NCBI GenBank assembly: GCA_963842525.1
Contig: CAWJGT010000003.1
Coordinates: 1,824,001 to 1,888,000 of the forward strand
Direction of reading: 5' to 3'
Source of the DNA: an uncultured Holophagales bacterium
Lineage (GTDB): Bacteria > Acidobacteriota > Thermoanaerobaculia > Multivoradales > UBA5704
DNA length: 64,000 nucleotides
The notes under the pieces are model-generated. The model did not search any database and was not told the DNA's origin. It saw nothing but the letters and a program-made list of their open reading frames with translations. Numbering within the stretch: position 1 is the stretch's first letter; each line of letters begins with the position of its first letter. Position numbers and translations under genes: made by a program. Shown here one piece after another: positions 13,954 to 32,843 of the stretch.

Positions 13954-13980
13954 TGAGGGTCTCCACCCTGCCCGAGCGTT
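13954..13980 (+). promoter_or_regulatory. ECF-type promoter motif A upstream of spike gene
   Basis: TGAGGG-N17-CGTT; a variant TGAGGG-N17-CGAC lies at 13910-13936. Confidence 0.7.
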
Positions 13981-14032
13981 CCTGTCGGCGGAGAGGCGAA
14001 CGACGCCGGTATGACCCCGAGAGGGAGGTCCT

Positions 14033-14848: not shown

Positions 14849-14859
14849 AAAAGGCAACG

Positions 14860-15258
14860 ATGAAACGTCTCGCCGATCCACCCTATATGTCCTTCCCGTT
14901 CCGCATCGGGGCCGGGGGAGCGCAGCGGTCCGATCGCCGCCGCCACGTGCGTGAGCAGATCGAGCAGGTGCTCTTCACCGACCCCGGCGACCGGGTCTTC
15001 CGTCCGGAATTCGGTGCGGGCGTCCGCACCCTGATCTTCGAGCCCAACACGTCCCCGCTATGGACCCTGGCGCGCAAGCGGCTGATGGCCGCGCTGGCCG
15101 AGGTCCTCCAGGGGGAGGTCGATCCACGCAGCCTGCAGGTCGACGTCACCGGCGAAGGGGAGACGCTGTCCCTGGTGATCTCCTACCGCTTGGCGACCCT
15201 CGGCCACTCCGAAGAGCACCGCTTCGCCATCGGAGCGGGGGGAGGCCGCCTTGGCTGA
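14860..15258 (+). CDS. GPW/gp25-family baseplate protein (Afp9-like)
   Basis: FPFRIG, IEQVLFTDPGDRVFRPEFGAG. Confidence 0.92.
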   Translation: MKRLADPPYMSFPFRIGAGGAQRSDRRRHVREQIEQVLFTDPGDRVFRPEFGAGVRTLIFEPNTSPLWTLARKRLMAALAEVLQGEVDPRSLQVDVTGEGETLSLVISYRLATLGHSEEHRFAIGAGGGRLG

Positions 15259-16450: not shown

Positions 16451-19400
16451 GCGCCGCCGACCGCGATCTCACCCGCTGGAACCGCTCGGGCCTCAAGCGC
16501 TTCCGCTACGTGGACGGCAATGCCGCCACGCACCTGGAGGAGCTGCGCCTCGCACTGCTCTCCCGCTTCCTGCACGAGAAGGCCGGAGGCGGTCAAGGGA
16601 TCCGGACGCGGCCGCAGCCTCGACTGGTGGCGCGAGGTCTGGGCCGATCCTCCCGATGCCGCCTCCGACCCCGACGGCCGCGAGGCGCTCGACGGCCTGC
16701 TCACCGACCTCCGCGGCCGTCTCGCCTGGACCGGCGAGGGCTCCGACCCCGGGCCGCTCTGGACGCCCGTGCCGCCGCGCCCCGAGGCCGAGGGCGAGCG
16801 CGCCGGCCGCCTGCTCGGGCAGTATGAGGGGGCGCGCCGCGACCTCGCCTGGGAGGTCGTGCGCTCCTTCTCCCGCGCCGCGCACGTCCTGACCGAGCAC
16901 CTGGACGCCTACGCCAACGAGGGGTTCCTGGGCACCGCCACGCAGTGGGAGAGCGTCCGCCGGCTGGCCGCCATGCTCGACGCCCGCCCGGCGCCGCCGG
17001 CCTCCGCCTCGACGGTGCTGCTGCTCCAGGCCAAGGAGGGGCGCCAGGGGGTGGTGGAGAAGGGCTTCCAGGTCAAGCACACGCCCGCGGACGGCGGCGC
17101 GCCCGTGATCTTCGAGACCCTGGAAAACATCCAGGTGGATGCCGCCCTCGACGAGCTGCGCCCGCTCGGGTTCGACCGCAACCCCGAGCTCCTGCAGGGC
17201 TCGCGGCTCGACCTCGCCGGCCGGATCAAGGGGTTGCGCACCGGCGAGCCGCTGATCCTGGAGGACGACCGCAACGGCCAGCTCCACGCCCATGTGATCC
17301 GCGGCGTGCTGGAGGAGGACGCGGCGACAATAGTTGACGTGGCGCCGCCGGTCGCCGGCGGCCCCGGCGGACTACCGCGCGGACACGTGATCGTCCACTC
17401 CGTGCCCCGCGATCGCCTGGCGCCGCTCGCCCCCGCCGCCACTTCCGTTCAGATCGGGCGCGCCCTCCACCTCGCCGAGGAGCCGTCCGGCCTGGCGGTG
17501 GGCGAGACCGTCTGGATCGGCGACGGCCGGCGGTCGCTCTTCCGGCGGGTGGACGCGGTCCAGGGCCGCCGCCTCACGGTCTACGAGGACATCGGCGAGC
17601 TGCGGGTCGACCTCACGGAGGTCGGGCGCCCGGTGCTCGTGCCGGTGACCAGCATCACGGGCCGCACGGTCGAGCAGACGCAGGACGGCCAGAACGTGGA
17701 CGTCCTCGCGGTCAAGGTGGCCGGCGACTGGACGCGCCTGCTCGGCGGCTGGGTGGCTGGCCGGCGCGGCGGCAGCCTGGCCCCCTGCCGGGTGTTCGGG
17801 GTGGACTACCGCCCCGTGGGCTCGGGCGTCGGACGACGCCGGCTACTCCTTCCTCCGCCTGGAGTGGCAGCACGGCGGCACGGGGAACCTGAACCCGCAG
17901 ACGCTCCTCGCGCCGCCGCCGGGCGGCGGCGTCTGGAGGGCCGACCGCTTCCTGGTCGAGGAAAGCTCCCGGGTGCCGCGCGACCTGGTCACCACCGTGC
18001 CCAAGAAGACGGCGGCCGGCGACCTGGCGGCCGTGGTAAGCGGCGGGCGGGTGGCCTGGGCCCGGCTGGGAGCGGTCGAGGTCGACACCGCCAGGGAGCA
18101 GGCAACCCTTCGCGCCGAGGCCGATTGGCGCGACCGCGGCGGGGCGCCGTACTTCTTCGCCGGGACCACTGTATACGGCCACTTCGAGCACCGCGTGCGC
18201 CTCGCCGGCTGGGACCGCAACGACCAGCCGCTCGCCGGCAGCGAGGTGCCGCTGGCGCAGGTGCCCGCGGCTCTGCGCTCCGGCCGCATCGTCTTCCTGG
18301 GGCGGCTGGACCAGCCCGGCGCCGGCCGGGTCGCCAAGGTGGGCGAGGTCAGGGACCGGTCGATCGTGCTCGACGCCGTGCTGCCGGAGGGCTCGACCTA
18401 CGGCAACCTGGTGCTGCGCGGCAACACGGTCGCGGCCGGGCACGGCGAGGCCAAGGAGGAAAGGGTCCTGGGCAGCGGCGACGCCTCGCAGTCGGGGCAG
18501 GTCTTCGTCCTGCGCGACAAGGGGGTCTCCTTCGTGGCCGACTCGAACCACCCGGCCGGCGTGCGGGCGGACATCGAGGTCCGCGTCGGCGACCGCGCCT
18601 GGCAGCAGGTGCCGACCCTCGCCGACTCCGGGCCGGCCGACCCGCACTTCGTGCTGCGCATGACCGAGGACGGCGGGCTCGAGCTGACCTTCGGCGACGG
18701 CCGCAACGGGCGCCGCCTGCCGACCGGCACCAACAACGTGCGCATCGCCTACCGGGTGGGTACGGGCCTCGCCGGCAACCTGCCGCCGGGGCGGCTGGAA
18801 AAGCCGGCCCGCCCGCATCCGCTGATCGAAGCCGTGCGGCAGCCGCTGCCGGCGACCGGGGGCAACGACATGGAGGCGATCGAGTCGTTGCGCGCCACGG
18901 CGCCGGCGAGCGTCTCAACCCTTGGCCGCGCCGTTTCGCTGGCCGATTTCGGACGGCTGGCGGCGAGCCAGAGCAGCCTCTGGCAGGCGCGCGCCTTCCC
19001 GTTGCCGGCGGGCATCGGCCGGCAGGAGAGCGTGCGGGTGGTCGTGGTGCCAGCCGGCGGCGGCCCCTTGGACGGCCTCGCCGTCTCGCTGCAGGCCTTC
19101 CTGGAGGCCCATGCCCTGCCCGGCGTGGCGGTGCGGGTGGAGCGCTACACCTCGGTGGCGATCTCGCTCCACGTCACGCTGCAGATCAAGACCGCCGAGT
19201 TCGATCCCGACCGCGTCCTCGCGGCCGTCCGCGAGCGCCTGCTCGAGGCCTTCGGCCTGCGCGGCCGGCGCATGGGGCAGGCGCTGCGCCTCGGCGAGAT
19301 CTACCACGTCGTCGAAGGGGTGAGCGGCGTCTCCAACTCGCTCTGCGTCCTCGACGGCGACCCCGCCCGCAACCATGTCGTGGCGCCGCCGGACGGCGTG

Positions 19401-19460
19401 GTCCACCTGGATGCGGAGCAGTCCTCCCTGATCGTTGTCTACAAGGAGTTCGAGCTGTGA
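16447..19460 (+). CDS. Large baseplate assembly protein (Afp11-like); frameshifts near 16580 and 17830
   Basis: YANEGFLGTATQWESVRRL, IFETLE, GNTVAAGHGE..LGSGD, FGDGRNGRRLPTGTNNV, GRAVSLADF. Confidence 0.85.
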
Positions 19461-21187
19461 ACGATCTCGAGACCCGCACCGGAAACCAGCTCTACGACCT
19501 CCTCCCGGAGGTCTATCGTAGCCGCGACGACGGCAGCCTCGCCGCCTGGATGAATGGCATGGGGCACCTCCTGGACCTTGTCCGCAACACGCTGGAGCAG
19601 CGGCTGGCCGACTGCTTCCCGGACGCACCGCTGCGCGGCCGGGCCAGCCAGGACTGGCTGCTGCCGTACTTCGCCGACCTGCTGGAGCCGCACATGATCT
19701 CCTCCGACCCCCGCGCCCAGCGCGCCGAGGTGGCGAACGCCATTGCCTGGCGGCAGCGCAAGGGGACGGTCGCCGTGGCTGAGCAGGTCGCCCAGGGGGT
19801 CGGGCAGATCGAGGTCGAGGTCCAGGAGGGGTGGAAGCGCGTCGCCGTCACCCCGCGGATCGGTGGCACCCCGCCGCCTCCGCCTCCCATGGAAGGAGAT
19901 CCCTGGGCCGACGGGCCGGCCGGCACGGTGGCCTTCGGCTTCCCGTCGCGCGCCGTCCGCGTCGATCCCGAGGATCCGGCCGCGCGCGTCACCCGCTTCG
20001 GCGACCAGTGGATCCCCTGGCGCCAGGCCCATGCCTCGGGCACACCCGCCTTCCCCGGCAGCTACGAGGACGTCTCGGCCCGTACCGTGGACATGCGCTC
20101 GCCCGACTGGCGCTGCGGGCACGCCCATCCGCGGCGGCTGCTGCTCTACTATCCGCCGCAGGGCGGCTTCTTTCCGCCCGGGGCGCCGGTGGTGGACTGG
20201 TACGCCTGGGCCTCCCGGCGCTCGATCTTCGAGCAGGGGCTCGCGCAGCTCGATGCCGGAGAGGAGAGCCGGATCTCGTTCAGCGATGTCTCGGCCGAAC
20301 GGCTCCCCGAGTCCCAGGGCATCGCGCGCGTCCTGATCAAGAAAGGCGGCGCTCTCGTAGGCGAGCGCATCAGCGAGCCCCACGGCCGGGTCACCCTGCG
20401 GATGCTCCTCTCCGGGCGGTGGATGGAGAGGAGCACCAAGCCCGGGGAGCCCGTCCTCTACCGTGGCGACGGCCGGCCGGTGATCGTCCGCGCCAGCAGC
20501 TCCGGCAATACCATCCACCTCGGTTCGGAGCTCCGCGTGGACTTCGAAGGGCTCTCCTTCGACGCGAGGCTCATCGGCAGCAACGGAACCCGCCTCAGGT
20601 TCCGCAATTCGGCCGCCCGGGAGGTCAACGTGCCGACGGCGGACCTGCATGAGCCTGTCATCGAGGCCGTCGATTCCCTCTTCGACTGGTTCGCCGCAAT
20701 CAACGGCCTTGTGCGCCTCGAATACGTGACCGTTCTGTCCGAGATCGCGGCGTCAGCGGCGTCGCGCGTCCAGGTGAGCGATTCGCTGCTGGTGGGGCAG
20801 CTCCAGATCTTCTCCTCCCAGCTCCCGAGCGTGATCCGCTATTCGCGCCTGCCCTGGCTCCCTGAGGGGGCGCCGGTCCTGGCGGCGTTCAATACCACGG
20901 AGCGCCCCCTGTTCGTGGAGCTGGACTTCCAGGAGGACGCCGGGACCGTCCGGCGCGCGGCCCGCTTCGGCGAGCCCGGCGCCGGCGTGCTCCACCCCGA
21001 AGCGCCGCGGGCGATCCGCCTCGGCGCCGAGGACGGCGGAGAGATGGGGGCCTATCACGGACGCCGCTACAGCCTGACGGCCGAGGCGGTCCGCAACAAG
21101 CTCGAAGACTACCTGCCGGTCGGCGTCGAGGCAGTGCTGATCCCCGATCCGCAACTCCTCAACCCGCCGCCCGAGCTCGAAGGGTGA
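19457..21187 (+). CDS. Baseplate wedge / tail protein I-like (Afp12-like)
   Basis: GTG start overlapping previous stop; LYDLLPEVYRSRD, DWLLPYFADLL, RAEVANAIAWRQRKGT, GAEDGGEMGAYH, LEDYLPVG. Confidence 0.85.
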   Translation: MNDLETRTGNQLYDLLPEVYRSRDDGSLAAWMNGMGHLLDLVRNTLEQRLADCFPDAPLRGRASQDWLLPYFADLLEPHMISSDPRAQRAEVANAIAWRQRKGTVAVAEQVAQGVGQIEVEVQEGWKRVAVTPRIGGTPPPPPPMEGDPWADGPAGTVAFGFPSRAVRVDPEDPAARVTRFGDQWIPWRQAHASGTPAFPGSYEDVSARTVDMRSPDWRCGHAHPRRLLLYYPPQGGFFPPGAPVVDWYAWASRRSIFEQGLAQLDAGEESRISFSDVSAERLPESQGIARVLIKKGGALVGERISEPHGRVTLRMLLSGRWMERSTKPGEPVLYRGDGRPVIVRASSSGNTIHLGSELRVDFEGLSFDARLIGSNGTRLRFRNSAAREVNVPTADLHEPVIEAVDSLFDWFAAINGLVRLEYVTVLSEIAASAASRVQVSDSLLVGQLQIFSSQLPSVIRYSRLPWLPEGAPVLAAFNTTERPLFVELDFQEDAGTVRRAARFGEPGAGVLHPEAPRAIRLGAEDGGEMGAYHGRRYSLTAEAVRNKLEDYLPVGVEAVLIPDPQLLNPPPELEG

Positions 21188-21233
21188 GAGGCATTTACTC
21201 GGCATTTACTCCTGCCGGATGCTGGGAATTCCC

Positions 21234-21467
21234 TCAGGGGGTGCAGCAGGCGATCCCACACTGCACTCCCGCCCGTCTGCAATCGCGCATGCACGCACTG
21301 AAGCCGGGATCCCCCTGCGGCGGACAGGTCGCCAGGCAGCTGTTGGTTACTACACTGCAGCCGCAATCGTCACCTGAGCATGCAGCGACGACCTTGGAAG
21401 GAACCGCCACGATCGTCAGGAGGACGAGACAGAGCGTTGCAAGCAGGTAAACAAGTTTGGTCCTCAT
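21234..21467 (-). CDS. Small secreted cysteine-rich peptide (77 aa; 10 Cys in mature part)
   Basis: Signal peptide MRTKLVYLLATLCLVLLTIVAVPSKVVA then ACSGDDCGCSVVTNSCLATCPPQGDPGFSACMRDCRRAGVQCGIACCTP; RBS AAGGGAG. Confidence 0.75.
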   Translation of the reverse strand: MRTKLVYLLATLCLVLLTIVAVPSKVVAACSGDDCGCSVVTNSCLATCPPQGDPGFSACMRDCRRAGVQCGIACCTP

Positions 21468-21530
21468 AGGCTCTCCCTTAGTAAGCAGCTTTCCTATTAT
21501 CTCTTTGTCAGATTCGCTTCGGATGGAGAG

Positions 21531-21749
21531 GCCCCGAAGGGGCTTGGGCATAAAGCCTGGCGCTTCAGCGCCAGTTGGCGCCCCCCAATGACCTGGAGCC
21601 CTGAAGGGGCGCAGGCATTCTCTACCATCCACCCGCGGCGGGGCTCGCGCCCCTCGCCCGTGCCGTCGCCCTTTCAGGGCTTTGGGTCAATATTGGGCCT
21701 CGGTCCTGGGGTTGAAACCCCAGGCTTTACGCCTTTGCCCCTGCGGGGC
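21531..21749. repeat. Intergenic REP-like inverted-repeat composite
   Basis: GCCCCGAAGGGGC..GGCATAAAGCCTGG inverted against CCTGGGGTTGAAACCCCAGGCTTTACGCC..GCCCCTGCGGGGC; same family as the copy at ~6637-6716. Confidence 0.85.
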
Positions 21750-21847
21750 TGCCGCCAGCCAGGGCCAATCTGACAAATAGAATTATGGCATCACAGGTCG
21801 TTGAGCACGCAAGCCCCGAGCGTGGAGCGTAGGGTCTCCAAGCATCC

Positions 21848-21874
21848 TGAGGGGGTCCGGGCTCGGGCAGCGTT
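21848..21874 (+). promoter_or_regulatory. ECF-type promoter motif A upstream of first DUF6519 gene
   Basis: TGAGGG-N17-CGTT(CC). Confidence 0.7.
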
Positions 21875-21937
21875 CCATACCGCGGAGTGGACGGCCGCCG
21901 CCGTCGCAGCCGATCGATTGACAAGGGACAGGCCGAC

Positions 21938-24805
21938 ATGAAGACTCAGATCTCCAGGAACGGATATGCCGCCGAGAAGCGCTACTCCGGGGTCTACCAG
22001 CAGCAGGGCAGCATCCTCACGGACCGCGACTGGAACGAGATGGTCGATGTCCTCAAGGGGCGCATCGACGAAGGATTGGCCCACGCGGTGGGGGCCGGCC
22101 TGGCGCGCAGCGGCGCCGTCGAGATCCTGCCGGGCTCCAGCTCGCAGGGGCTCGCGATCCGACCCGGGACGGTCTACGCCGGGGGGGTGACAGCCCAGGT
22201 CGCGCCCGCCGCCGGGGCCGCGGTCCCCTTCCGCTACGACCAGCAGGCCGACTTCCCGTCGCCCCCTGCGCTGCCTGCGGGCCAGGACTACGTCCTCTAC
22301 GCGGACATCTGGGAGCGGCCGGTGCTGGCCATGGAGGACGAAGGCCTGCGCGACCGCGCCCTGACCGGGGCGGCCGATCCCAGCACCCGCAGCCAGACCC
22401 TGGCGCAGATCAAGTGGGCCCCGGCTTCCTCGGACCCGGAAGACCCGGGCCAGAATCCACCGCGCGGCAACGCAATCCTCAGGGTGTCCGTGCCGTCGCA
22501 GGACCACCTCCCCGGACCCGATACCGACACCCTTCCGGAAGCCGTCGATCCGCTGGGCAGAGACGTCCTCCTCCGTCTGGAGGTCCACAACGTGACCTGG
22601 CCGGAAGAAGCCCCGCCGGAGTGGTGGTCCCGCATCGTCCTCAAGTGGTCGCGGGAGAACGGCGCGCGGCAGTACCGCTACCTGGAGGTGCCCCCCTGGT
22701 TCAAGACCGGGACGTGGATCTACGAGCTCTACGACCCGGAGGCCGAAAAGCACCTGGGCTACACCTTCGGGAGCTGGACCCCGGTGCGCGGAACGCTTTC
22801 GTCGACGTTCCCCGAGGTGAGCGGGGAGATCGCCGCACGCTCCTTCGTCCGGCGCTGGGACGGCTACTGCATCGTCTCGAGAACGGACTCCAGCAATCCC
22901 CACCTCCCTGCTTTCCAATTTGACGAGGACCCCGCGACGACCGCTCCCGGGTCCGTGGTCACCCTGTCCTCCTGGGAGGAGCCCTCCCCCGATGGGGACC
23001 TGGCCGTGAATCTCGGCCATCTCAGGCTCGACCTCACCCTCCAGAGCTCCGTCCTCCTGGCCGGAGACTCCTGGCAGGTCCCGGTCCGCCGGGCCGGCTA
23101 TCTACCCGGATCACAGATCCTGGCGGATCTGCCGTCGGGAGTTGCGCACCGCTACGCGACCCTGGCCACGGTCAGTGCCGCGGGGGCCGTGACGCCGCGG
23201 CTAGCCACCTTCTCGCCCCTGACCGCGCTCCAGGCGGGCGATGTCGCCTACGACGGCAGCGGTGCCACGAACGGCCTCTTCAACGCCTCCCACAATACGG
23301 TGAAGAAGGCGCTGGACCGACTCTGGAGCCTCGGCGCCGAGCACGCCGGGTACACCAGGTCCGCGAACAAAGGGGTCTACAAGGACAGATCCGCCGCCAA
23401 CGTCAAGCAGGCATTGGACCTGCTGAGCGACGTCCGTGCGCGGCAGATCGTCTACGACGGGCGGACGGGCGTGCCCGATCCTCAGGCCGCTCTGGACGCG
23501 TTGTTCAACCGCTCCACCAAGCTCAACGCCTGGACCACGGTCGGCGGGGCCGGGCAATATACGTCAGTCAATGCGGCGGTCACCGCGCTCCTCGCGCAAC
23601 AGAAGCGCGACATCCGCCTGTGGCTGCTGCCGGGCGATCATCGAGCTCGATCCGACGCAGCCGCTGATCACCGCGCAGGACGCGGTCCATCTGACCCTCG
23701 CGGGTGCCGGCTGGGTCTCCCGCCTGCTCGTCCGGGGAGCGGTCTCGTTCCAGGGCTTCGCCTCGGTGACGTTCCAGGGGCTGGCCGTCGAAGTCGACCG
23801 CCTGGCCGGCGTGTTTGTGAGCGGCGGCGAGTCTCTCTCCTGGACAACCGCATCTCGGGCATTTGCACCGAGGACGGCAAGGGTTTGATCCATTCGACCG
23901 GCAGCTCCCGCATCCTGCTGCGGGACAACATCGTCGAAGCCTCCCGGAACGATCCCACGGTGGAGCCGGTGTCGATCCTCGCGCCGCTCGATACCGAGGC
24001 CGCGCTGCGCGAGCTGTTCTCGACGCGCTCGCCCAGGCTGTTCGCGCTGCGTGCCAACGCGATGGACCTGCGGGTGCAGGCGCTCACGAAAGCCGAGCGC
24101 CAGCAGAGGGCGGACGCCATCCAGGCGCTGCTGGACCTGCGCCCGGACCTCCCGAAGGGGGCCTACAACACCTTCGTGACCAATCTGCGCGGCACATCTG
24201 TCGGTTTTCTCAACGGCACCTTGTCCCCGATCCGCGTCGAAGCCGTGCGGCGGGCGCTCCCCGGCACCTTTCTCACGATCGACGACATCGCCGGCAGCGT
24301 GCGCCTGGAGGGCAACCAGATCTTCGGCACCGTGAGCCTCTACGGGGCGCCCGGCGGCGAGCTCACCTCTGCCGATCTCCAGCGCATCGCCGGGCAGATC
24401 ACGACGATTTCCTTCGACGCGGCAGGCGGGTATGACCTCGTGGCCCGCAACAACAGGATGACCGGCTTCCGCATCGGCAAAGCGAGAGTCGAGCGACTCC
24501 AGGCCCAGAACGGCGCCGGGCTCGTCTATCGCCGCATCTGCCTGCGCGACAACACGATCGACAGCACCGGCAATCAGCTCCTGGCCGGCGCCGTCTCGCT
24601 GCAATCGAACCTCGTCCTCGCCGCGCCCACGTGGGGATGGATGATCACGGACGAGGCCTTGCTCCAGCTCAACCTGACGCGCTTCGCCGTGACGCAGAGC
24701 GCCACGGCCATCGATGTCCTGGCGCGGAGCGGGGTGACGGCGCTCAACGGGGCCTCCTTCAACGTACGTCAGCCGGCGTCGGAGTTGGCTCCCACGGTCC
24801 CCTGA
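21938..24805 (+). CDS. DUF6519-domain tail-fibre-like protein 1 (compensating indels near 23640 and 23835)
   Basis: MKTQISR..RYSGVYQQQG..LTDRDWNE, WERPV, LKWSRENG, RRWDG, GDSWQVPVR; beta-helix-like C-terminal half. Confidence 0.85.
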   Translation: MKTQISRNGYAAEKRYSGVYQQQGSILTDRDWNEMVDVLKGRIDEGLAHAVGAGLARSGAVEILPGSSSQGLAIRPGTVYAGGVTAQVAPAAGAAVPFRYDQQADFPSPPALPAGQDYVLYADIWERPVLAMEDEGLRDRALTGAADPSTRSQTLAQIKWAPASSDPEDPGQNPPRGNAILRVSVPSQDHLPGPDTDTLPEAVDPLGRDVLLRLEVHNVTWPEEAPPEWWSRIVLKWSRENGARQYRYLEVPPWFKTGTWIYELYDPEAEKHLGYTFGSWTPVRGTLSSTFPEVSGEIAARSFVRRWDGYCIVSRTDSSNPHLPAFQFDEDPATTAPGSVVTLSSWEEPSPDGDLAVNLGHLRLDLTLQSSVLLAGDSWQVPVRRAGYLPGSQILADLPSGVAHRYATLATVSAAGAVTPRLATFSPLTALQAGDVAYDGSGATNGLFNASHNTVKKALDRLWSLGAEHAGYTRSANKGVYKDRSAANVKQALDLLSDVRARQIVYDGRTGVPDPQAALDALFNRSTKLNAWTTVGGAGQYTSVNAAVTALLAQQKRDIRLWLLPGDHRARSDAAADHRAGRGPSDPRGCRLGLPPARPGSGLVPGLRLGDVPGAGRRSRPPGRRVCERRRVSLLDNRISGICTEDGKGLIHSTGSSRILLRDNIVEASRNDPTVEPVSILAPLDTEAALRELFSTRSPRLFALRANAMDLRVQALTKAERQQRADAIQALLDLRPDLPKGAYNTFVTNLRGTSVGFLNGTLSPIRVEAVRRALPGTFLTIDDIAGSVRLEGNQIFGTVSLYGAPGGELTSADLQRIAGQITTISFDAAGGYDLVARNNRMTGFRIGKARVERLQAQNGAGLVYRRICLRDNTIDSTGNQLLAGAVSLQSNLVLAAPTWGWMITDEALLQLNLTRFAVTQSATAIDVLARSGVTALNGASFNVRQPASELAPTVP

Positions 24806-24829
24806 GGGGACTCGGGACCGACTGGCGTT
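24803..24829 (+). promoter_or_regulatory. ECF-type promoter motif A upstream of second DUF6519 gene
   Basis: TGAGGG-N17-CGTT(CC); the TGA doubles as the upstream stop codon. Confidence 0.7.
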
Positions 24830-24894
24830 CCTACCACGAGCCCGCCGCCGTGGCGGAGCCGCAGCAGACAACCGAGATCAGGATCGAAAACGAG

Positions 24895-27681
24895 ATGAAG
24901 ACACAGATCTCCAGAGATGGATACCGCGCCGACAAGCGCTACTCCGGCGTCTATCAGCAACAGGGCCGGATGATCACCGACCGCGATTGGAACGAGCTGG
25001 TCGATATCCTGAAAGCCCGCCTCGACACGGGGCTGGCCGACGTCGTGGGCAGCGGCGTGCCGCGCGAGCATGCCGTCGCGCTGCGCAAGGGCGCGCAGGG
25101 GCTGGAGATCCGGCCAGGTGTGGTCTACGCCGGCGGCGTGGCCGCGCAGATCGGATCCTCCTACGGACCTTCGACGTTCTTCGGCTACGACCAGCAGGTC
25201 GACTTTCCGTCGCCCCCCCTGCCGCAGGCCAACCAGCCGTACGTCGTCTATGCGGACGTCTGGGAGCGTCCGGTCTCCGCGCTGGAAGACGAAGGGCTGC
25301 GCGATCCGGCCCTGAACGGAGCCGACACGACGACGCGTACCCAGACGATGGCCCAGATCAAGTGGGCCCCCACCGGAAAGAAACCCGAGGACGCGGGCCA
25401 GAACCCGCCGCGCGGCAACGGGACGCTCTCGGTGAGCGTACCGGCGGCGAGCTCGGGCGATCCGCTGGGCGGCACCGACGCGGCCGGCGGGGACTACCTG
25501 TTCCGCCTGGAGGTCCACGACGTGACCTGGCCGTCGAACGCGGCTCCGGACGCGCCGGGCCGCGTGGTCCTCAAGTGGTCCCGCGAGAATGGAGCCGAGC
25601 AGCACAAGGCCCTGGAGGCCCCCAGCTCCTTCCGGTCCGGGCCCTGGATCTACGAGCTGTACCAGCTCGCGAACGAGAAGACCCTCGGATTCCATTACGC
25701 CACCTCCTGGCAACCGGGCCGCGGCGAGCTGTACACCGTGTTCCCTTCCCTGTCCTCCCAGGCGCACCAGAGCCATTTCCTGCGCCGCTGGGACGGCTAC
25801 TGCGTCCTCCAGCTCCAGAGCAACAAGTCCTGGGGTTTCTCCTCCAATCAGGTCGAGGAGCCGAGGCGGACGGCTCCGGGGGCGACGGTCCAGCTCGAGA
25901 GTGGACGACTCATCGTGCGGCTCCTCGACCTCGAGCTCGACCTCGACATCCAAGGCCGGACCTTCCTGGCCGGAGACTACTGGCAGGTGCCGGTCCGCCG
26001 CGCCCTCCACCAGCCCGGAACCCAGATCGTCCAGTCGGCTCCGCCGGCGGGCATTACGCACCGCTATGTGACCCTGGGCTCGGTGAGCGCCACGGGCGAC
26101 GTGACGCCGCGCGCCACCTTTCCGCCCCTGACCGCCCTCCAGGCAGGCGATGTGGGCTACGACGGCAGCGGCTGCACGACCGGTCTCTTCAATGGCTCCC
26201 ACGATACGGTGGAGAAGGCCCTCAACCGTCTCTGGCAGCTCGCCGCCGAGCACGTCGCGTACACCAAGCCCGCGGACAGCTCGCTCTACAAGGGCAAGAC
26301 CATCGCCAATGCCAAGAATGCCCTGGACCTGCTGAGCGACGTCCGCGCGCGGCAGATCCTCTATGACGGAAGGACGGGCGTGCCGGACGTCCAGGCCGCT
26401 CTCGACACGCTGTACACCCGTCCCAGCGGCGACTCCTGCGGCTATACGGTCGGCACGGGCGGAGAATTCGCCAACATCGACACGGCAATCCAGACGTTGA
26501 TGACCCAGCAGAGGCAGGATATCCGCCTGATGCTGCTGCCGGGCGACCACGTGCTGAGCGCGAAGCTCCGTCTTCCTCAGCGACCGCAACGTCCACCTGA
26601 CCTTCACCGGCACCGGCTGGGCATCCCGCCTGATCATCAACAAGGCATTCTCGATTCAGACGCCCGCCTCCGTGACCTTCCAGGGCCTGCACATCGAATT
26701 CCAGGGAACGGGCTCTCTCGTGAGCCAGGGCGGCGAGGTCAGCTTCCTGGACAACCGCATCACCGGCGTCTCCACGGCTGCCCTGATCCGGCCCCAGATC
26801 TGCTCGCGCATCCTGTTGCGCGACAACCTGGTCGAGGTCTCGGAGATCGACCCGACGCTCGAGCCGGTCTCGATCCTCGCGCCGCTCGACACCGAGGCCG
26901 CGATCCAGCAGTTGTTCTCGACGCGCTCGCCGCGGCTTTTCGCGCTGCGCGCCAATGCGATCGACGACAGGATCGCTGCGCTCACCGAGGCCGAGCGCCT
27001 GCAGCGGTCGGACGCCATCCAGATGCAGTTGAACAAGTTTCCCGACCTGCCGAAGGCCGCGTACAACACCTTCCTGATGAACCTCCGGGCCGGAGCCCGG
27101 GGCTTCCTCAACAACACCCTCTCCGCGGTCCGCGTCGAGGCCTTGCAGCGGGCGCGCCCCGGCCTCTTTCTCCAGCTCGACTCTCCCCTGTCGCCGCTGC
27201 GGCTGGAGAGCAATCAGATTTTCGGCTACGTGAGCCTCTACGGCGCTCCGGGAGGAGACCTCACCTACACCGAGCTGCGCAACTTCAGCAGTCAGGTGGG
27301 GAACACACTCTTCGATTCACAGGCTCGACACGACCTGATCGCCACCGGCAACCGGATGAGCGGATTCCGCGTCACTGCACACACCTTCAGCTCGATCCGC
27401 ACGGGCACCCACATCACCCCGCTTTTCCAGCGCATCACGCTGACGGACAACACCTTCGAGGCCGGAGGCAACCAGCTCGTCGCGTGCAACGTCGAGCTCA
27501 GCTCGAACCTGTACACAGCGCCGACCTTCGGCTGGGCCATCGGGGAGGAGGTCCTGCTGATGAGCAACGTGGCGCGCATCGATGTCGGCCTCGACGTGGT
27601 CACCCGGAACATGGTGTCGACCGGCAACTCGACGCGCATGAAGATCCGGCGGATCACGCCGAGCTCCCCGCCACGCCATGA
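24895..27681 (+). CDS. DUF6519-domain tail-fibre-like protein 2 (frameshifts near 26570 and 27655)
   Basis: Paralogue of 21938..24805 along its length; the C-terminal half is in ORF 26672..27799; end AELPATP* parallels SELAPTVP*. Confidence 0.82.
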   Translation: MKTQISRDGYRADKRYSGVYQQQGRMITDRDWNELVDILKARLDTGLADVVGSGVPREHAVALRKGAQGLEIRPGVVYAGGVAAQIGSSYGPSTFFGYDQQVDFPSPPLPQANQPYVVYADVWERPVSALEDEGLRDPALNGADTTTRTQTMAQIKWAPTGKKPEDAGQNPPRGNGTLSVSVPAASSGDPLGGTDAAGGDYLFRLEVHDVTWPSNAAPDAPGRVVLKWSRENGAEQHKALEAPSSFRSGPWIYELYQLANEKTLGFHYATSWQPGRGELYTVFPSLSSQAHQSHFLRRWDGYCVLQLQSNKSWGFSSNQVEEPRRTAPGATVQLESGRLIVRLLDLELDLDIQGRTFLAGDYWQVPVRRALHQPGTQIVQSAPPAGITHRYVTLGSVSATGDVTPRATFPPLTALQAGDVGYDGSGCTTGLFNGSHDTVEKALNRLWQLAAEHVAYTKPADSSLYKGKTIANAKNALDLLSDVRARQILYDGRTGVPDVQAALDTLYTRPSGDSCGYTVGTGGEFANIDTAIQTLMTQQRQDIRLMLLPGDHVLSAKLRLPQRPQRPPDLHRHRLGIPPDHQQGILDSDARLRDLPGPAHRIPGNGLSREPGRRGQLPGQPHHRRLHGCPDPAPDLLAHPVARQPGRGLGDRPDARAGLDPRAARHRGRDPAVVLDALAAAFRAARQCDRRQDRCAHRGRAPAAVGRHPDAVEQVSRPAEGRVQHLPDEPPGRSPGLPQQHPLRGPRRGLAAGAPRPLSPARLSPVAAAAGEQSDFRLREPLRRSGRRPHLHRAAQLQQSGGEHTLRFTGSTRPDRHRQPDERIPRHCTHLQLDPHGHPHHPAFPAHHADGQHLRGRRQPARRVQRRAQLEPVHSADLRLGHRGGGPADEQRGAHRCRPRRGHPEHGVDRQLDAHEDPADHAELPATP

Positions 27682-30600
27682 GCAGCGGACCGGCCGTCGC
27701 CCACAAGGCCGCGGAGGCCGGGAGGCAGCGCACGCCGTCTCCCGTCCCGGCCGGCCCCTCGCCGCAGCGGGAGGAGATCCGCAGTGCCCTCTCGCGTGAC
27801 GAGGAGTACCGCCTCGCGCGCACCGAGGACGGCGGCATCGTCCTGTACTTCCATCCGCGGGACTACTTCACCTGGTCCGATCCCCTCGGCGAGACCTTCG
27901 GCCGCTACGTGCTCCACGTCTTCCCGGGAGCCACCCGGGAGGACGCCGAGGAGTGCGCGCGCGACAACGGGGTCTTCTGGGTGCAACGGGTCCCCGAGGA
28001 TGCCGCGGGCCGCGGCCTGGTCCCCATCACGATCCAGGGGCCTCTTCACTCCCAGGTCAAGGCCTGGTTCAAGACGCACCGCCCCGGCCTCCTGCCGGTG
28101 GAGCCCGCGCCCGGATTCTTCCGCCTGGCGGACACGCGTCCCGACCGCAGATCGCTGGACGTGATCCGTACCTTCGTGCCGAAGGGGGCGCTCGTCCTCC
28201 AACCCGACGTAGGGACCTTCGTCCAGGGGAGCACCATCAAGGCGGCCGTCGAGTTCGCCGGCGACTCCGCCAACGAGCGCCTCAACCTCTATCCCAGCAT
28301 GGCCGCCTTCGACTGGACGGTCGTCGATGCGAACGGCCAGGAAGTCCTGACCGGCCCCCTCTTCGAGGGGCGCGGCACCCGCATCTACGAATTCGAGCTG
28401 AGCGAAAAGGGCCGCTACGAGGTCCGGGTCACGGTCTCCAGCCGGTGGTTCAGCACCGGCGACTTCACCCCGCCGCCGGTCTCGATCCTGGTGGTCAGCG
28501 AAGCGCAGCGCGAGAAGGAGGTCTTCGACCTGCTCCTCACCGGCCCCGGCGAGGAGGCCCCGTTCGAGCGCGTCGGCAGCGAGCTGCGTCTCAAGCCCGG
28601 CGCCGAGCCTCTCTCGGTGGACCGGGAGGTCGAGAAGGCCGACTTCTGGGTCCGGCTCGTCGACCGGATGCAGGCGAGAGGGCAGATCACGGAAGAGCAG
28701 GCCGAGGAGTTCCGCGAAGTCTGGACGGACCGCAAGGAGATGCTCGAGGAGAAGAGGGAGCTGCTGACCGGCACTACGCCATACATCGCCTACGGGAGCT
28801 TCCTCGATGCCACCACCTCCGCCTATCTGCCTCTCCAGGTCGCCCTGCGCGGCGAGAGGCGGAACGAAGGATCCTCCCTCGGCTTCAGCTTCCGACTGCT
28901 CGACTTCACCCTGGCGCCGTACGACCCGCCGCTCCACTCGGGCGAAGCCGAGGTGGAGGTCGCGTTCGGCGACGAGCAGACGGCGACCCGCCGGGCCGAG
29001 ATCGCGGCCCTCGACGAGCTGGCCGGGCACTGGCAGTCCAACAACAGCTATCCGGACGGCACCGTGCGTCTCGTCGTCCGGCTCTCCGACGGGACCCTCT
29101 ACGAGAGGCCGCCCATCGACACCCGCAGCGCCAAGAAGGACGTGCAGCAGGCCGCGGGCAAGGTGGCCCTGGTCCTCGGCGCCGTGGCGCTCGGCATCTC
29201 CCTGATCAATCCCGTCGGCATCCTTTTCGTCGTCGGCACGGGCGCGGGCGTCCTCGCGGCCGGCGCCGGGCTGACCGATGTCGGCCTGCGGCTGGAGCAG
29301 CGCATCCAGACCCACACGCTGCACGCCGACCGCCAGGTGGCGCTCGACTGTCTGCAGGTGGCCGCCACGATCGCCGGCATCGGCGGCATGGCCCGGGCGG
29401 TGCGCTCCGGCAGGGTGCTGAGCGACGGCCGCCTCCTGGTCGGCATGGCCGGCCTGGACGTGGCGCAGGGGATGGTCCTGACCGCCGACGTGCAGGCGCG
29501 CATCCTGGAGGTCGAGGCCGACTACCACAGCCGCGCCGCGGCGCTCCAGGAGCAGGGGAATGCCGTCGAGGGGGACCTGAAGGCGCTCGCCGTCGAGAGG
29601 GACACCGCCGTCGCGAACATCCTCGGCGAGGCCGCCATCGGCGGCGGCTTCCTCCTGGTCTCGCTGGGCAGGGGAGTCAAGGACATCAGAAACCACGTGC
29701 GGAGGGTGGCGGCGAGCGGCGACCCGCGGCTCATCCGCAACACCCTGGGGACCGACCGCGTCCTCACTCCGGACGAGGTGCGCCAGCTCAACACCGCGCT
29801 CGAAGCGGCCGAGCCGCCGGCGAGGATTGAAGAGCCGCCCACGGCCACCGCGAAAGTGGAAGAGCCGCTGCCCGCGCCGCCGAGGGTCGAAGAGCCGGTG
29901 AAGCCCGAAGCCAGGGTGGAAGAGCCGCCCCCCGCAACGGCGAAGATCGAGGAGCCTGCCAAGCCCGGGCCGAAGGTGGAAGAGCCCGGCACGCCGGAGA
30001 AGCCCAGGCCTCCCAGGCCCGCAAGTCCAGAGCCCGCCGCAACGGTCCGTCCGGTCCCCGAGGTCCGGGGACTGGTGACCCTCCCCGCCAAGCCGGTCCG
30101 GCCCGGCGAGCTGCGCTACGACTACCAGACCTGGCTGCGCTCCGAGGTCGAGCATCCGGTCTCGGAGGCGCGGCGCGCGCGGGCCGCCGAGCTGGCGGAG
30201 CGTCTGGCCGGCTTGGACAAGAGGCAGCGCAACGTCGACAAGGTCACGCGACAGCTCGACGAAGCCGAGATCGAGGCCCGGGAGGCAGCCCTCGAGGAGC
30301 CCAAGACGGGAGAGGCGCCGCCGCCACCTTTCGACGAAAAGGCCCATCAGGCCGCCCGCGAGCGCAACGCGGCGGAGCAGCAGCAGATCCTGGCGGACAC
30401 CGTCCCCCTGATGCACGCCCTGCAGGAGCACGCCAACTCGTCCCTGTCCACGGACATGGGCGGCACCCCGGCCCAGATGCTCGACCTCCAGGGACGCCTC
30501 AATCCACCCGAGATCCGGGGCCTCCACATCGAGCTCGGCCGCGAGCGGTTCGTCAAGCTGCTCGGCGCCGGCCCCGACGTCGTCGGCCGGTTCCTGGACG

Positions 30601-31601
30601 TGCGCCGCCAGACCAACCTCACCCGGACCGGCCGCCTCCGCCTGCTCGAGATCCTCGACCTGCACCGCAGCGGCGCCCTCGACGACGCCCGCCTCTCCCA
30701 GGCGCTCGACGAGTGCCGGGACTTCCTGACCCTTTATCCGAACGGGATCAAGGGGGACTTCCGGCGCATGGCCGCGGCGTTCGATCCGGCCGCCCGCGTC
30801 TCCACGGTCGAGGCGCTCCCCACCTCCGAGCTGTACCTGCGGGCCCAGTCGGGGGACGCGGATGCCGCCCACGAGCTCGAGCTGCGGCGCCAGAGCCTCT
30901 CCACCGAAGAGCTCCAGACCGCCGCCCAGCAGGCCGAACAGGCCGCGCGGCGGGCCCGCAAGGCCAAGCGCAAGGACGAGGCGCGGAGCGCCAAGGGCGA
31001 GCAGGACCGGCTCAGAACCCTGCTGGCCGAGCGCAACGTCCTCTTCACAGGGGTCCGCACCACCGACGGCCCCTTCACCACCCACCCCGAGCTGCGCAGA
31101 GTCTTGGAGAACGACCTCCGCAAAAGCCGGGTCGTGGGCCGGATCGACATCCCGCAGTCCGATGCCGCCGTCGAGGGAGGCACCCTCGGAGCCGCGCGCA
31201 CCGACATCCCGGGCGTCGGCCCCCGCAAGCTCTTCCTCGGCCGCTCGCCCAAGGCGCACGCCGAGGGAGAGGCCTCGACGATCAATCCCAGGTACAAGGC
31301 CCCGGCCGAGACCGCGGCCGCCCACGGGCACGCCGAGCAGACCCTGGTCGGCAACCTCGCGGACGACATCGACCAGCTCATCAAAGCCGGCAAGCTGACC
31401 CAGGCGGACCTCCAGGGGAAGACCGTCTGGATGCTCATCGATCAGGAAGTCTGCAGCTACTGCGGCTCCGGCCTGGACAGCCCCGTCGCTCCCGGCGTGC
31501 TGGCGCAGTTCAGCCAGGACTTCCCGCTGCTCACCATCCAGATCAAGAACCTGCGGACCAGCGACCTCATCATCCTGAGGGGCGGCCGCCGGATCAATTA
31601 G
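27678..31601 (+). CDS. Polymorphic-toxin-like eCIS effector with C-terminal zinc-dependent deaminase domain
   Basis: Ig/PKD-like segment, hydrophobic Gly/Ala-rich helices, EEPP linker repeats, then HGHAEQ...EVCSYC..GVLAQFSQDFPLLTIQI. Confidence 0.85.
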   Translation: MSSGPAVAHKAAEAGRQRTPSPVPAGPSPQREEIRSALSRDEEYRLARTEDGGIVLYFHPRDYFTWSDPLGETFGRYVLHVFPGATREDAEECARDNGVFWVQRVPEDAAGRGLVPITIQGPLHSQVKAWFKTHRPGLLPVEPAPGFFRLADTRPDRRSLDVIRTFVPKGALVLQPDVGTFVQGSTIKAAVEFAGDSANERLNLYPSMAAFDWTVVDANGQEVLTGPLFEGRGTRIYEFELSEKGRYEVRVTVSSRWFSTGDFTPPPVSILVVSEAQREKEVFDLLLTGPGEEAPFERVGSELRLKPGAEPLSVDREVEKADFWVRLVDRMQARGQITEEQAEEFREVWTDRKEMLEEKRELLTGTTPYIAYGSFLDATTSAYLPLQVALRGERRNEGSSLGFSFRLLDFTLAPYDPPLHSGEAEVEVAFGDEQTATRRAEIAALDELAGHWQSNNSYPDGTVRLVVRLSDGTLYERPPIDTRSAKKDVQQAAGKVALVLGAVALGISLINPVGILFVVGTGAGVLAAGAGLTDVGLRLEQRIQTHTLHADRQVALDCLQVAATIAGIGGMARAVRSGRVLSDGRLLVGMAGLDVAQGMVLTADVQARILEVEADYHSRAAALQEQGNAVEGDLKALAVERDTAVANILGEAAIGGGFLLVSLGRGVKDIRNHVRRVAASGDPRLIRNTLGTDRVLTPDEVRQLNTALEAAEPPARIEEPPTATAKVEEPLPAPPRVEEPVKPEARVEEPPPATAKIEEPAKPGPKVEEPGTPEKPRPPRPASPEPAATVRPVPEVRGLVTLPAKPVRPGELRYDYQTWLRSEVEHPVSEARRARAAELAERLAGLDKRQRNVDKVTRQLDEAEIEAREAALEEPKTGEAPPPPFDEKAHQAARERNAAEQQQILADTVPLMHALQEHANSSLSTDMGGTPAQMLDLQGRLNPPEIRGLHIELGRERFVKLLGAGPDVVGRFLDVRRQTNLTRTGRLRLLEILDLHRSGALDDARLSQALDECRDFLTLYPNGIKGDFRRMAAAFDPAARVSTVEALPTSELYLRAQSGDADAAHELELRRQSLSTEELQTAAQQAEQAARRARKAKRKDEARSAKGEQDRLRTLLAERNVLFTGVRTTDGPFTTHPELRRVLENDLRKSRVVGRIDIPQSDAAVEGGTLGAARTDIPGVGPRKLFLGRSPKAHAEGEASTINPRYKAPAETAAAHGHAEQTLVGNLADDIDQLIKAGKLTQADLQGKTVWMLIDQEVCSYCGSGLDSPVAPGVLAQFSQDFPLLTIQIKNLRTSDLIILRGGRRIN
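29805..30000 (+). repeat. In-frame (I/V)EEP linker repeats, ~30-bp period
   Basis: ARIEEPPTATAKVEEPLPAPPRVEEPVKPEARVEEPPPATAKIEEPAKPGPKVEEP. Confidence 0.8.
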
Positions 31602-31613: not shown

Positions 31614-32378
31614 ATGCCGTTCATCCAAGACAAGGAACCCGCCGCCGCGGTCTGGCGCCGGTTCCTGGAGAAGTCCGCCACGCCCCTTGGACCCGTCCCC
31701 GACCGGCAGGAGGTCCGCCGCATCCTCGCGCAATCGCCCACGGCCGCGCTGCCGGCTCTCGCCATGGGCGGCCTGCCCGCTGTCGGTGGGCTCGTGCAGG
31801 GTGCCACGAATGAGGATGCCCAGACCGTCTGGAGCAAGATCGCCGACGTCAAGACGAAGGCCGAGCCGGGACAGCCGGAGACGCCGCAGCAGACGCGCGC
31901 CCATCAGGCCATCCAACAGATGCTCTCCATCCCCGAAGGGATCACGCTCGTCCGGCAGCTCGGCCGGCTCTTCGGCAAGCGCGACAAGCCGACCTTGGAA
32001 ATCCACTTCGTCAACAAGCTCAAGAAGGACTTCGAAGGCGCCGGCGGCTACTTCGTTCCCGAGGAGAAGGGGCAGCCCAAGTACCAGATCTACATCAGGA
32101 ACGACACGCCGATGGAAGGCGTCTTCTCGCGGGAATGGCCGCAAGGGGAGGGGCCGAAGATCTCCTCCCTCAGCGTGGACTCCGCGTCCAACATGGCCCG
32201 GACGCTGCACCACGAGCTGCTCCACGTCTGGTACCTCCACACGCAAGACGACGGGGAGTACCCGACCGGGCACGGCGATGTCGGCGAGCGCGAAATCGCG
32301 CAGCTCTTCTGGGACCGCCTCAAGAAGTTCGCCGAGCAGCAGGACGATTTCACCCGTCCTGCCCGCGAGCGCAGGTAG
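31614..32378 (+). CDS. HExxH-motif protein (putative metallopeptidase effector or immunity protein)
   Basis: AGGAG RBS; ARTLHHELLHVWY..PTGHG; directly follows the deaminase toxin. Confidence 0.75.
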   Translation: MPFIQDKEPAAAVWRRFLEKSATPLGPVPDRQEVRRILAQSPTAALPALAMGGLPAVGGLVQGATNEDAQTVWSKIADVKTKAEPGQPETPQQTRAHQAIQQMLSIPEGITLVRQLGRLFGKRDKPTLEIHFVNKLKKDFEGAGGYFVPEEKGQPKYQIYIRNDTPMEGVFSREWPQGEGPKISSLSVDSASNMARTLHHELLHVWYLHTQDDGEYPTGHGDVGEREIAQLFWDRLKKFAEQQDDFTRPARERR

Positions 32379-32601: not shown

Positions 32602-32843
32602 GAGGGACGATCCATCTTTTCCGACGTGACAGGGTACTAGCGGCGAAGAGGCTCGGGCTCGCCGGAATTATCGCACGAGCAAGGGAGCGGCTTCCCGGGG
32701 CCCAGGCCGGACCGCTCCCCGTCAGCGCGTACAACGTTTGACAACTGAAGCACAGACGAAGAGGCGGCCCTATCTGTTTGCCAGGGCGTGGCCGTCCAGG
32801 CCATGCTCTGGTCCTTTTTTAACTGAGCTTCCACCCCCGTGGT

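Follow-up and report, generated by a model that had tools for sequence, protein, structure and literature searches.

The window analysed here is a stretch of 64,000 nucleotides from an uncultured Holophagales bacterium (contig CAWJGT010000003.1, positions 1,824,001 to 1,888,000 of the forward strand). It encodes two contractile injection loci, A and B, and directly after locus A lies a long open reading frame (ORF) whose product, P0001, is the subject of this work. We propose, with a probability of about 0.6, that P0001 is a modular cargo of the polymorphic-toxin type that belongs to the contractile injection system (CIS) encoded directly upstream. The protein consists of a carrier, a linker and a C-terminal toxin cassette, the last part of which is predicted to be a deaminase.

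The C-terminal domain was modelled with AlphaFold2, both alone, with the family alignment as input (161 residues; predicted local distance difference test score (pLDDT) 90.5, predicted template modelling score (pTM) 0.85), and together with the region that precedes it (508 residues, 800-1307; pLDDT 89.3). The pTM of the longer model is 0.56, so the packing between its domains is unsure. In both models the elements follow the order alpha1, beta1, beta2, an insert of about 30 residues, alpha2 (which begins at HAE), beta3, the CxxC loop, alpha3 and a beta4-beta5 hairpin; the core fold of the cytidine deaminase (CDA) superfamily, beta1-beta2-alpha2-beta3-alpha3-beta4-beta5, is present in each. In the zinc-site pattern of the superfamily, helix 2 starts with [HCD]xE and CxxC precedes helix 3; P0001 has these as H1218-A-E1220 and C1259-x-x-C1262, which are the residues of the HxE/CxxC signature reported in a preliminary description of the window. 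[quoted passage not shown] This is the arrangement in the 161-residue model, where strand 140-145 runs directly into strand 151-155, and the 508-residue model agrees.

When the 161-residue model was compared with the PDB using Foldseek, 40 of the 42 matches listed were named cytidine or cytosine deaminases (CDD1, CDA, DddA, APOBEC3, SsdA and PPR-DYW), the remaining two being TOD6 and BubCD-BubB. Yeast CDD1 came first (E 4.7e-3, probability 0.95) and DddA ninth, while APOBEC3G had a probability of 0.97 and a TM-score of 0.44. The 508-residue model again retrieved blasticidin-S deaminase, CDD1, DddA and DddB, and the best target-normalised TM-score was that of DddB (9k3e_B; 0.60, root-mean-square deviation 4.7). 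Among the named matches to the tip in a viral structure library, most were dCMP-type deaminases. The CDA-like fold that the preliminary description expected is thus borne out by the models and by structural matches that are weak and nearly all to deaminases. The tip of P0001 very probably has a deaminase fold and is catalytically competent.

The domain belongs to a large family. We searched 1.84 billion representative proteins exhaustively with HMMER, which gave 271 relatives at E<=1e-3 and, at the stricter limit of E<=1e-10, 137, counted as representative clusters at 50% identity. We aligned 154 relatives to a hidden Markov model (HMM) of the family; 152 of them span both motifs and 149 of these keep the H/E/C/C tetrad intact, the exceptions having D for H (two) or R for the first C (one). 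By position, the H is kept in 150 of the 154 relatives, the A in 151, the E in 152, the first C in 153 and the second in all 154. The number of relatives and the conservation of the tetrad imply that the motif is more than a chance resemblance. In an alignment of 33 short members, H72, E74, C116, G119 and G127 are invariant and C113, S44, A73, G101 and S133 nearly so, which gives a family signature of roughly GxSP ... (G)HAEQ ... GxTV ... EQxVCxxCxxG ... PGVLxQFS.

The domain ends at most 30 residues from the C-terminus in 114 of 155 family proteins (113 of 154 relatives), and in other members it is attached to various partners, e.g., a pretoxin-HINT domain, RHS repeats, or WXG100 with a DUF6782 peptidase. 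One RHS repeat protein, WP_015179651.1, is encoded on a plasmid of Oscillatoria nigro-viridis; its last ~170 residues match the family HMM (E 1e-49) and share 35.5% identity with the window domain. The gene that follows it is annotated as an Imm10-family immunity protein (27 bits against the Pfam cut-off of 28.6 for Imm10), a family tied to Pput_2613 deaminases in Zhang 2012. Judged by these architectures, the deaminase-like domain behaves as a polymorphic-toxin cassette. The two Oscillatoria genes are a ready toxin-immunity pair for the family.

Many family members carry the domain eCIS_core (PF13699, formerly DUF4157), which Geller 2021 describes as a core domain of extracellular contractile injection systems (eCIS), placed at the N-terminus of many eCIS toxins. 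Pfam places it in 33 of the 53 best relatives. Our own HMM, built from segments of the Pfam-positive relatives and in agreement with Pfam in 33 of 33 cases, finds it in 69 of 154 relatives; of the 92 relatives with at least 600 residues, 67 (73%) have it. In a FastTree phylogeny of 147 domains, a quick, midpoint-rooted tree from which we draw nothing further, the window domain falls in a clade of five members (support 100), all devoid of eCIS_core, which is nested in a group of 86 rows of which 48 carry it.

The relatives of the whole protein reveal how P0001 is assembled. Besides the window's own record, only three full-length-type relatives were found, plus P0156 and the fragment P0008. P0007 matches P0001 over residues 32-136 (E 4e-16) and 163-767 (E 2e-90), has eCIS_core (E 1.8e-19) immediately before this shared carrier region, and finishes with a weak match to a GH-E nuclease (E 0.0027, below the cut-off). 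P0156 has a different N-terminus, and its homology to P0001 is limited to residues 805-1129 and the deaminase domain. The homology therefore switches at the Pro-rich linker, where the match of P0007 stops and just past which those of P0156 and P0008 start, indicating that the linker separates a reusable carrier from a toxin cassette of ~500 residues. As shown by these alignments, the N-terminal ~770 residues (carrier, hydrophobic helices and start of the linker) form a reusable scaffold, and the last ~500 (helical region and deaminase fold) a separate cassette.

The hydrophobic helices and the Pro-rich linker upstream of the tip had been recognised in the preliminary description, which did not mention the helical region between the linker and the deaminase-like domain. 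This region accompanies the deaminase domain in P0005, P0006, P0008 and P0156 and had no informative fold match in the Foldseek search with the 508-residue model; one idea is that it masks the deaminase of its own protein. The Gly/Ala-rich hydrophobic segments (Kyte-Doolittle, window 19, threshold 1.5) are candidate membrane-insertion segments, and the Pro/Ala-rich N-terminus is possibly a loading leader. The linker contains a 60-nt tandem repeat (29821-29986, + strand; 2.8 copies, 73% matches) that codes for a (K/R)(V/I)EEP-type stretch. The carrier region itself has no Pfam, PHROGs or PDB sequence match. With P0001, PHROGs gave one unannotated family only (E 0.041), and nothing useful with P0007 or with P0003, the product of the next gene. 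HMMER comparisons with PHROGs and Pfam revealed no homology of the N-terminal region to tape-measure proteins, although the profile-profile methods of published work are more sensitive.

The gene itself is well defined. Its ORF, which the preliminary description had singled out, is confirmed, and the C-terminal string quoted there is present letter for letter; the ORF is unbroken over 3.9 kb and has a strong coding bias, with GC fractions of 0.73, 0.48 and 0.93 at the three codon positions, a pattern shared by the window's other clear genes (68% GC overall). The copy of the protein in the database, P0004, starts 77 residues downstream. The homology of the Thermoanaerobaculia ortholog P0006 begins at about residues 10-30 of P0001, which favours a start at 27678 or nearby, the exact start codon being uncertain. 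The frame upstream is open to 27799 and overlaps the start of the cargo gene.

P0001 is encoded by the penultimate gene of a contractile-injection operon, directly after locus A and just before P0003. Locus A holds the eCIS core set as given by Geller 2021 (sheath, tube, gp25, Baseplate_J, spike, DUF4255 terminator and AAA ATPase), with P0001 at the operon's 3' end, so the eCIS-type context named in the preliminary description stands. No terminator-like site was found between the upstream genes and P0001, and a hairpin after P0003 (32780-32812) is the probable end of the locus A operon. The gene order is conserved in L001, a contig of a Thermoanaerobaculia metagenome-assembled genome retrieved in a genome scan with P0001, where a Tail_P2_I-like gene, two DUF6519 genes and the cargo gene follow each other as in the window; this is the one related genome locus on which the synteny is based. 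Gene order and content make it likely that P0001 is a cargo of the adjoining system. The adjacency could instead be coincidental, in which case P0001 would be a remnant or else a polymorphic toxin that is secreted or membrane-anchored independently of the system. Such a reading would account for the lack of eCIS_core and of any recognised packaging signal in P0001, and it gains from a synteny that comes from a single other locus and from the frameshift in the adjoining gene. We nevertheless consider it very improbable, given the synteny kept in L001, the fusion of the same scaffold to eCIS_core in P0007, the presence of this domain in 73% of the long family members, the absence of a terminator-like site before the gene, and the intact ORF with its coding bias.

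Several observations weigh against P0001 being a deaminase-tipped cargo of locus A. No curated family in Pfam or NCBIfam reaches its cut-off, and the window domain is without any Pfam match. In the Foldseek searches no fold match had E<=1e-3 and the query-normalised TM-scores were low (0.29-0.46), and sequence searches against solved structures, with the domain alone or with the family profile, link no deaminase to the domain; a profile of the full-length alignment found nothing meaningful among PDB sequences. The domain is not always a tip, since it is internal in 41 of 155 family proteins, where 48-815 residues follow it. Locus A has at least one frameshifted gene and a stretch of shifting frames (4850-7340), so the machine may not be intact, or else the assembly has indel errors. 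A six-frame scan of both the window and L001 at E<=10 found no eCIS_core (the control, P0007, gave 9e-20), so the best-known marker of eCIS toxins is missing from P0001; it is a frequent feature of such toxins and not an obligatory one, as DUF4157 is entered as 'Absent' for several validated eCIS-associated toxins in Table 1 of Geller 2021. Lastly, no immunity gene was recognised, and no Imm10-like sequence, in the window. Many toxins of eCIS, including the Photorhabdus virulence cassette (PVC), are described in Zhang 2012 and Geller 2021 as having no adjacent immunity gene.

If P0001 is indeed the cargo of locus A, it would be loaded unfolded into the tube lumen with the help of the Pvc15-like AAA ATPase of the locus, a role described for the ATPase of PVC (PMC11495950), and would be ejected upon sheath contraction. 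The hydrophobic helices would then aid the crossing of, or residence in, the target membrane. A similar protein could also serve a machine that is not extracellular, i.e., a Streptomyces-type cytoplasmic CIS that fires inside the producer or at its membrane and whose cargo contributes to producer death, differentiation or stress response. The large CIS effectors of published accounts combine transmembrane helices and coiled coils with C-terminal enzymatic modules that can be swapped, a general build similar to that of P0001. In these accounts Tme is an endonuclease, and Micromonospora eburnea has a Sle1-type protein whose end is cytidine-deaminase-like and whose gene is followed by an immunity gene. 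The lack of a recognised immunity gene in the window would also fit a suicidal use. Set against this are the lack of detectable similarity to tape-measure proteins in PHROGs, the position reported for Tme upstream of the baseplate genes, the presence in both loci of Pvc16_N with an AAA ATPase, a set typical of eCIS, and the RHS members of the family with their immunity gene, which suggest use between cells. On balance, a cytoplasmic system is improbable, and we retain delivery by an eCIS-type machine.

To place the domain among known deaminases, we relied on sequence models and on an ESM feature search. The last 200 residues of P0001 matched no Pfam family even at E<=10, and no NCBIfam family. 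Each of the 33 aligned members was compared with Pfam singly at E<=1, and together they matched 19 families. PF14424 (Toxin-deaminase) was matched by 16 of the 33, dCMP_cyt_deam_1 by four, MafB19-deam by two and Deam_C by one, and the best PF14424 match of any member (E 2.6e-4) had 21.6 bits against a gathering cut-off of 29.6. DYW_deaminase, SsdA_C, SCP1201-like, Pput_2613-deam and MsddA-like are not among these matches; we infer that the library contains SsdA_C (PF24120) and PF24174, the former from other PF24xxx-PF26xxx models in the output. The ESM scores, which are leads only, put an unnamed cluster first (0.92), then the PF14424 and MafB19 clusters (0.88) and the MsddA-like and SCP1.201 clusters (0.84), with SsdA_C as the last family listed (rank 29, 0.81); all named neighbours are deaminase families. 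We therefore treat the domain as a clade of the CDA superfamily, in the C-terminal-hairpin division, that Pfam and NCBIfam models do not recognise. Its nearest neighbour among the known families is PF14424, and it does not belong to the SsdA type.

The preliminary description had assigned the tip to the SsdA type (BaDTF2), an assignment that we reject. In de Moraes 2021, the defining traits of BaDTF2 are a sequence of the DYW type and a helical insertion that contains an SGW motif. The domain of P0001 has no SGW, its only Trp lies in beta3 (VWML), and its insert contains no helix of at least four residues in the model. Neither DYW_deaminase (PF14432) nor SsdA_C (PF24120) matched any of the 33 members (E<=1) or the window domain (E<=10), and SsdA (9c63) ranks only 30th among the Foldseek matches listed (E 5.6e-2, probability 0.57).

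The chemistry of the tip can be anticipated from its zinc site. H1218, C1259 and C1262 would hold the zinc ion and E1220 would act as proton shuttle in a hydrolytic deamination of a base. By analogy with related toxins, a nucleic acid is the moderately favoured substrate. Cytosine in DNA would be the likeliest target, although we place this more specific reading slightly short of even odds; its conversion to uracil would cause C-to-T mutation and breaks driven by repair, in the manner of DddA, SsdA and DddB. This view follows from the analogy with these three enzymes and from the PF14424 clade, members of which deaminate cytosine in single-stranded DNA when used in base-editor format (Huang preprint). 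The 'mutagenic nucleic-acid deaminase' and 'base-editor scaffold' of the preliminary description remain inferences. The tip might also deaminate free nucleotides or a small molecule (dCMP/dCTP, or in the manner of blasticidin-S deaminase) and kill by depleting or poisoning the nucleotide pool. This would agree with the best structural matches, CDD1, CDA and blasticidin-S deaminase, all enzymes of nucleosides or small molecules, with the dCMP deaminases among the named viral matches, with the weak dCMP_cyt_deam_1 hits in four of 33 members, and with the fact that no DNA-binding insert like the helix-hairpin-helix reported for DddB was identified in the domain. However, the nearest families by sequence (PF14424, MafB19 and SCP1.201) are toxin clades that act, or are predicted to act, on nucleic acids, the polymorphic-toxin architecture and the RHS/Imm10 context resemble those of DNA deaminase toxins, and Foldseek ranks are not decisive among such distant matches. 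We therefore regard a small-molecule substrate as quite unlikely and a nucleic acid as the better candidate.

The gene that follows the cargo was considered as a source of self-protection. Its product P0003 has a HELLH motif, a Peptidase_M91 match at E 0.097, and weak ESM leads to zincin effector families (M85/PipA clusters, scores up to 0.83); it had no plasmid match and no relative among PDB sequences. In L001, a partial ORF follows the ortholog of P0001 (75% identical), and it is unrelated to P0003. A role as cognate immunity protein was judged unlikely on account of the HELLH motif, the leads to zincin effectors only, the lack of resemblance to Imm10 and the lack of conservation in L001. 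P0003 may be a small zincin-like second cargo rather than an immunity protein, a suggestion that we make without confidence.

Features of the window and of one related locus, with positions in the window unless stated otherwise (aa, amino acids of P0001).
Feature	Position	Strand	Basis or remark
Contractile injection locus A, upstream of the cargo gene	2340..27655	+	Pfam domains
Locus A sheath	2340-4367	+	
Locus A gp19 tube	from 4389	+	
Locus A Pvc16_N tail terminator	7360-7920	+	
Locus A AAA ATPase (Pvc15-like)	7917-9260	+	
Locus A tube-like protein	10426-11115	+	
Locus A VgrG-like OB spike protein	14033-14848	+	
Locus A gp25	14860-15258	+	
Locus A Baseplate_J	17973-19460	+	
Locus A DUF6519 protein, first	21887-24805	+	
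Locus A DUF6519 protein, second, frameshifted	~24895-27655	+	
Whole cargo ORF, P0001, 1307 aa	27678..31601	+	ATG start; stop codon 31599-31601; orthologs P0005, P0006, P0156
Low-complexity Pro/Ala-rich N-terminal ~40 aa	27678..27797	+	Composition; alignment with P0006, whose N-terminus is likewise of low complexity
Conserved N-terminal carrier region, aa ~32-488	27771..29141	+	Common to P0005, P0006 and P0007; no known family
Gly/Ala-rich hydrophobic helices, aa 489-533, 554-572, 643-663	29142..29666	+	Part of the scaffold common to P0007
Pro/Glu-rich linker, aa ~680-800, 23% Pro	29715..30077	+	Composition and repeat scan
All-helical 'pre-toxin' region, aa ~800-1135, ~330 aa	30075..31082	+	Model pLDDT mostly >90; two ~40-residue helices
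Deaminase-fold domain, aa ~1137-1307	31086..31598	+	Models, fold searches, family alignment
H1218-A1219-E1220, codons cac gcc gag	31329..31337	+	Predicted zinc ligand (His, 31329-31331) and predicted catalytic Glu (31335-31337)
C1259-S-Y-C1262	31452..31463	+	Predicted zinc ligands (C1259, 31452-31454; C1262, 31461-31463)
P0003, 254 aa, co-oriented, 12 nt past the cargo stop	31614..32378	+	HELLH motif; low-complexity N-terminal ~100 aa
Terminator-like hairpin, 14 pairs, 9 G-C, then a T run	32780..32812	+	Only strong one, after P0003
Contractile injection locus B	48491 down to ~33825	-	AAA ATPase at 50950-53052
RHS protein with deaminase-like tip (locus L002)	5632-10025 of L002 = NC_019730.1 55417-59810		Family HMM

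The two loci, A (2340-27655, +) and B (33825-53052, -), are both complete-looking and convergent, and lie within one 64-kb window. A PAAR gene (40248-40646) is present in locus B only. The gap between the loci encodes an extracytoplasmic function (ECF) sigma factor (32918-33550) and, in the frame 33304-33804, a zf-HC2 anti-sigma; upstream of locus A there is a sigma-54 activator (510-2072). The second DUF6519 gene is split near 26560-26580 when compared with the intact 925-residue ortholog in L001 (in tblastn, residues 1-557 in one frame and 565-925 in another), and its second frame continues to 27799, beyond the start of the cargo gene; the split reflects either an indel in the assembly or a pseudogene, in which case the locus would be decaying. 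At ~4850-7340 (+) the best frame by third-position GC changes every few hundred bases, with no Pfam domain past the gp19 tube gene. Gaps of both loci contain Acido-Lenti-1 RNA motifs (Rfam RF01687), four in all, which score 37.2-41.3 bits where the gathering score is 37 and lie at 6353-6396 (-), 6635-6680 (-), 21705-21750 (+) and 43629-43672 (+); two are within the stretch at ~4850-7340, on the opposite strand. These motifs are a hint that the host is one of the Acidobacteriota.

Elsewhere in the family, the members with an internal domain (e.g., P0013, P0015 and P0016) typically have it right after eCIS_core. At least 200 residues follow it in 37 of these 41 proteins; the 37 tails compared form 13 unrelated groups, and hydrophobic segments occur among the three tails that were inspected.

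Deaminase toxins are in demand as tools: published uses include mitochondrial base editing with DddA, and editing, footprinting and methylome sequencing with SsdA, DddB and MsddA. The deaminase screens that we consulted drew their candidates from curated Pfam/InterPro profiles or from the alignments of Iyer 2011 and Zhang 2012. Since base-editor mining began from Pfam/InterPro deaminase families and no member of the 271 clusters scores above a curated cut-off, such screens may have missed this family, which would be a cheap source of new deaminase candidates. P0001 is also a cargo naturally built from three parts, the carrier, the linker and the toxin cassette, and each of them is recombined in some relative. 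Its carrier lineage does without eCIS_core, which has a bearing on the loading of large cargos. In its boldest form, the domain would typify a large clade of nucleic-acid deaminases that evolved mainly as CIS payloads, perhaps never screened, with a possibly new substrate or context preference (double-stranded DNA, RNA or modified bases), here on an eCIS_core-free carrier and without a dedicated immunity gene. We find this rather unlikely as a whole; if true, a carrier without eCIS_core or immunity gene would imply another loading route and a form of self-protection that resides in the protein or in its timing.

Among the known deaminase toxins, the families closest in kind each share some traits with the domain. 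SsdA and BaDTF2 belong to the same superfamily, use the HxE...CxxC chemistry and include a toxin domain that ends a large delivery protein, but SsdA is delivered by a type VI secretion system (T6SS) and has an adjacent immunity protein. PF14424, the BURPS668_1122 clade, stands closest by sequence (matched by 16 of 33 members; ESM 0.88), and the window copy even has its CxxCxS (CSYCGS); yet every match is below the cut-off and the window domain itself is unmatched. According to Iyer 2011, the BURPS668_1122 motifs are RxxDxExK in helix 2 and CxxCxS in helix 3, whereas the family has (G)HAEQ and CxxCxxG. DddB/BaDTF3 (Pput_2613-like) and DddA/BaDTF1 (SCP1.201-like) are likewise C-terminal-hairpin deaminase toxins. 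The only links to DddB are the Imm10-family gene after one family member and the target-normalised TM-score to 9k3e_B; the motifs of Pput_2613 are HTE and PCxxCK (Iyer 2011), compared with HAE and VCxxC (VCSYCG) here, and there is no PF14427 match. DddA differs in that PF14428 is not matched and that the [HD]xEx[KQ] given for SCP1.201 in Iyer 2011 is not found, the residue two positions past the Glu being Thr. The sce3516-like clade, characterised in Zhang 2012 by HAE and a C-terminal hairpin and renamed MsddA-like in a later preprint, shares both of these features with the domain, a comparison made by description only. PF24174 was matched by none of the 33 members at E<=1, and the ESM search listed, at a score of 0.84, a cluster of whose own members 13% carry PF24174.

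The delivery of deaminases by eCIS is itself not new, contrary to what the preliminary description implied in regarding such enzymes as known only from T6SS. Zhang 2012 tabulates Tox-Deaminase domains with PVC-type delivery and PVC-metallopeptidase, and in Geller 2021 EAT11, a protein of 364 residues with DUF4157 and an XOO_2897-like deaminase, is toxic to E. coli and yeast. The supplement of Geller 2021 lists YwqJ-, DYW- and XOO_2897-type Pfam matches in eCIS operons, with YwqJ-deaminase enriched. Our finding therefore adds to a known picture, and its interest lies in the family. We found no paper describing this deaminase family, which has no searchable name; the search did not extend to the supplements of bioRxiv preprints or to supplement file 9 of Geller 2021. 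The new elements are a large deaminase clade for which no curated model exists, and which may have been described earlier, and a carrier lineage that lacks eCIS_core.

Like EAT11 and the PVC-type deaminases, P0001 has a toxin domain with a deaminase fold and is encoded at the 3' end of its eCIS operon. It differs from EAT11 in its size (1307 against 364 residues), in the absence of DUF4157/eCIS_core and in its C-terminal hairpin, as XOO_2897-like deaminases are assigned to the Helix-4 division in Iyer 2011, and its domain matches none of the Pfam families named in Geller 2021. With the Tme/Sle1-type effectors of actinobacterial CIS, as these are described, it shares a very large size, transmembrane helices (predicted), coiled coils or long helices, and a C-terminal enzymatic module that can be exchanged; one natural Sle1-type protein ends in a cytidine-deaminase-like part. 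In the published descriptions, DUF4157 is present in Tme itself and, for Sle1, in a small partner protein, and neither arrangement is found in the window. Moreover, no tape-measure homology was detected here, and the cargo gene lies at the 3' end of its operon, in contrast to the effector genes of those systems, which are placed upstream of the baseplate or sheath genes.

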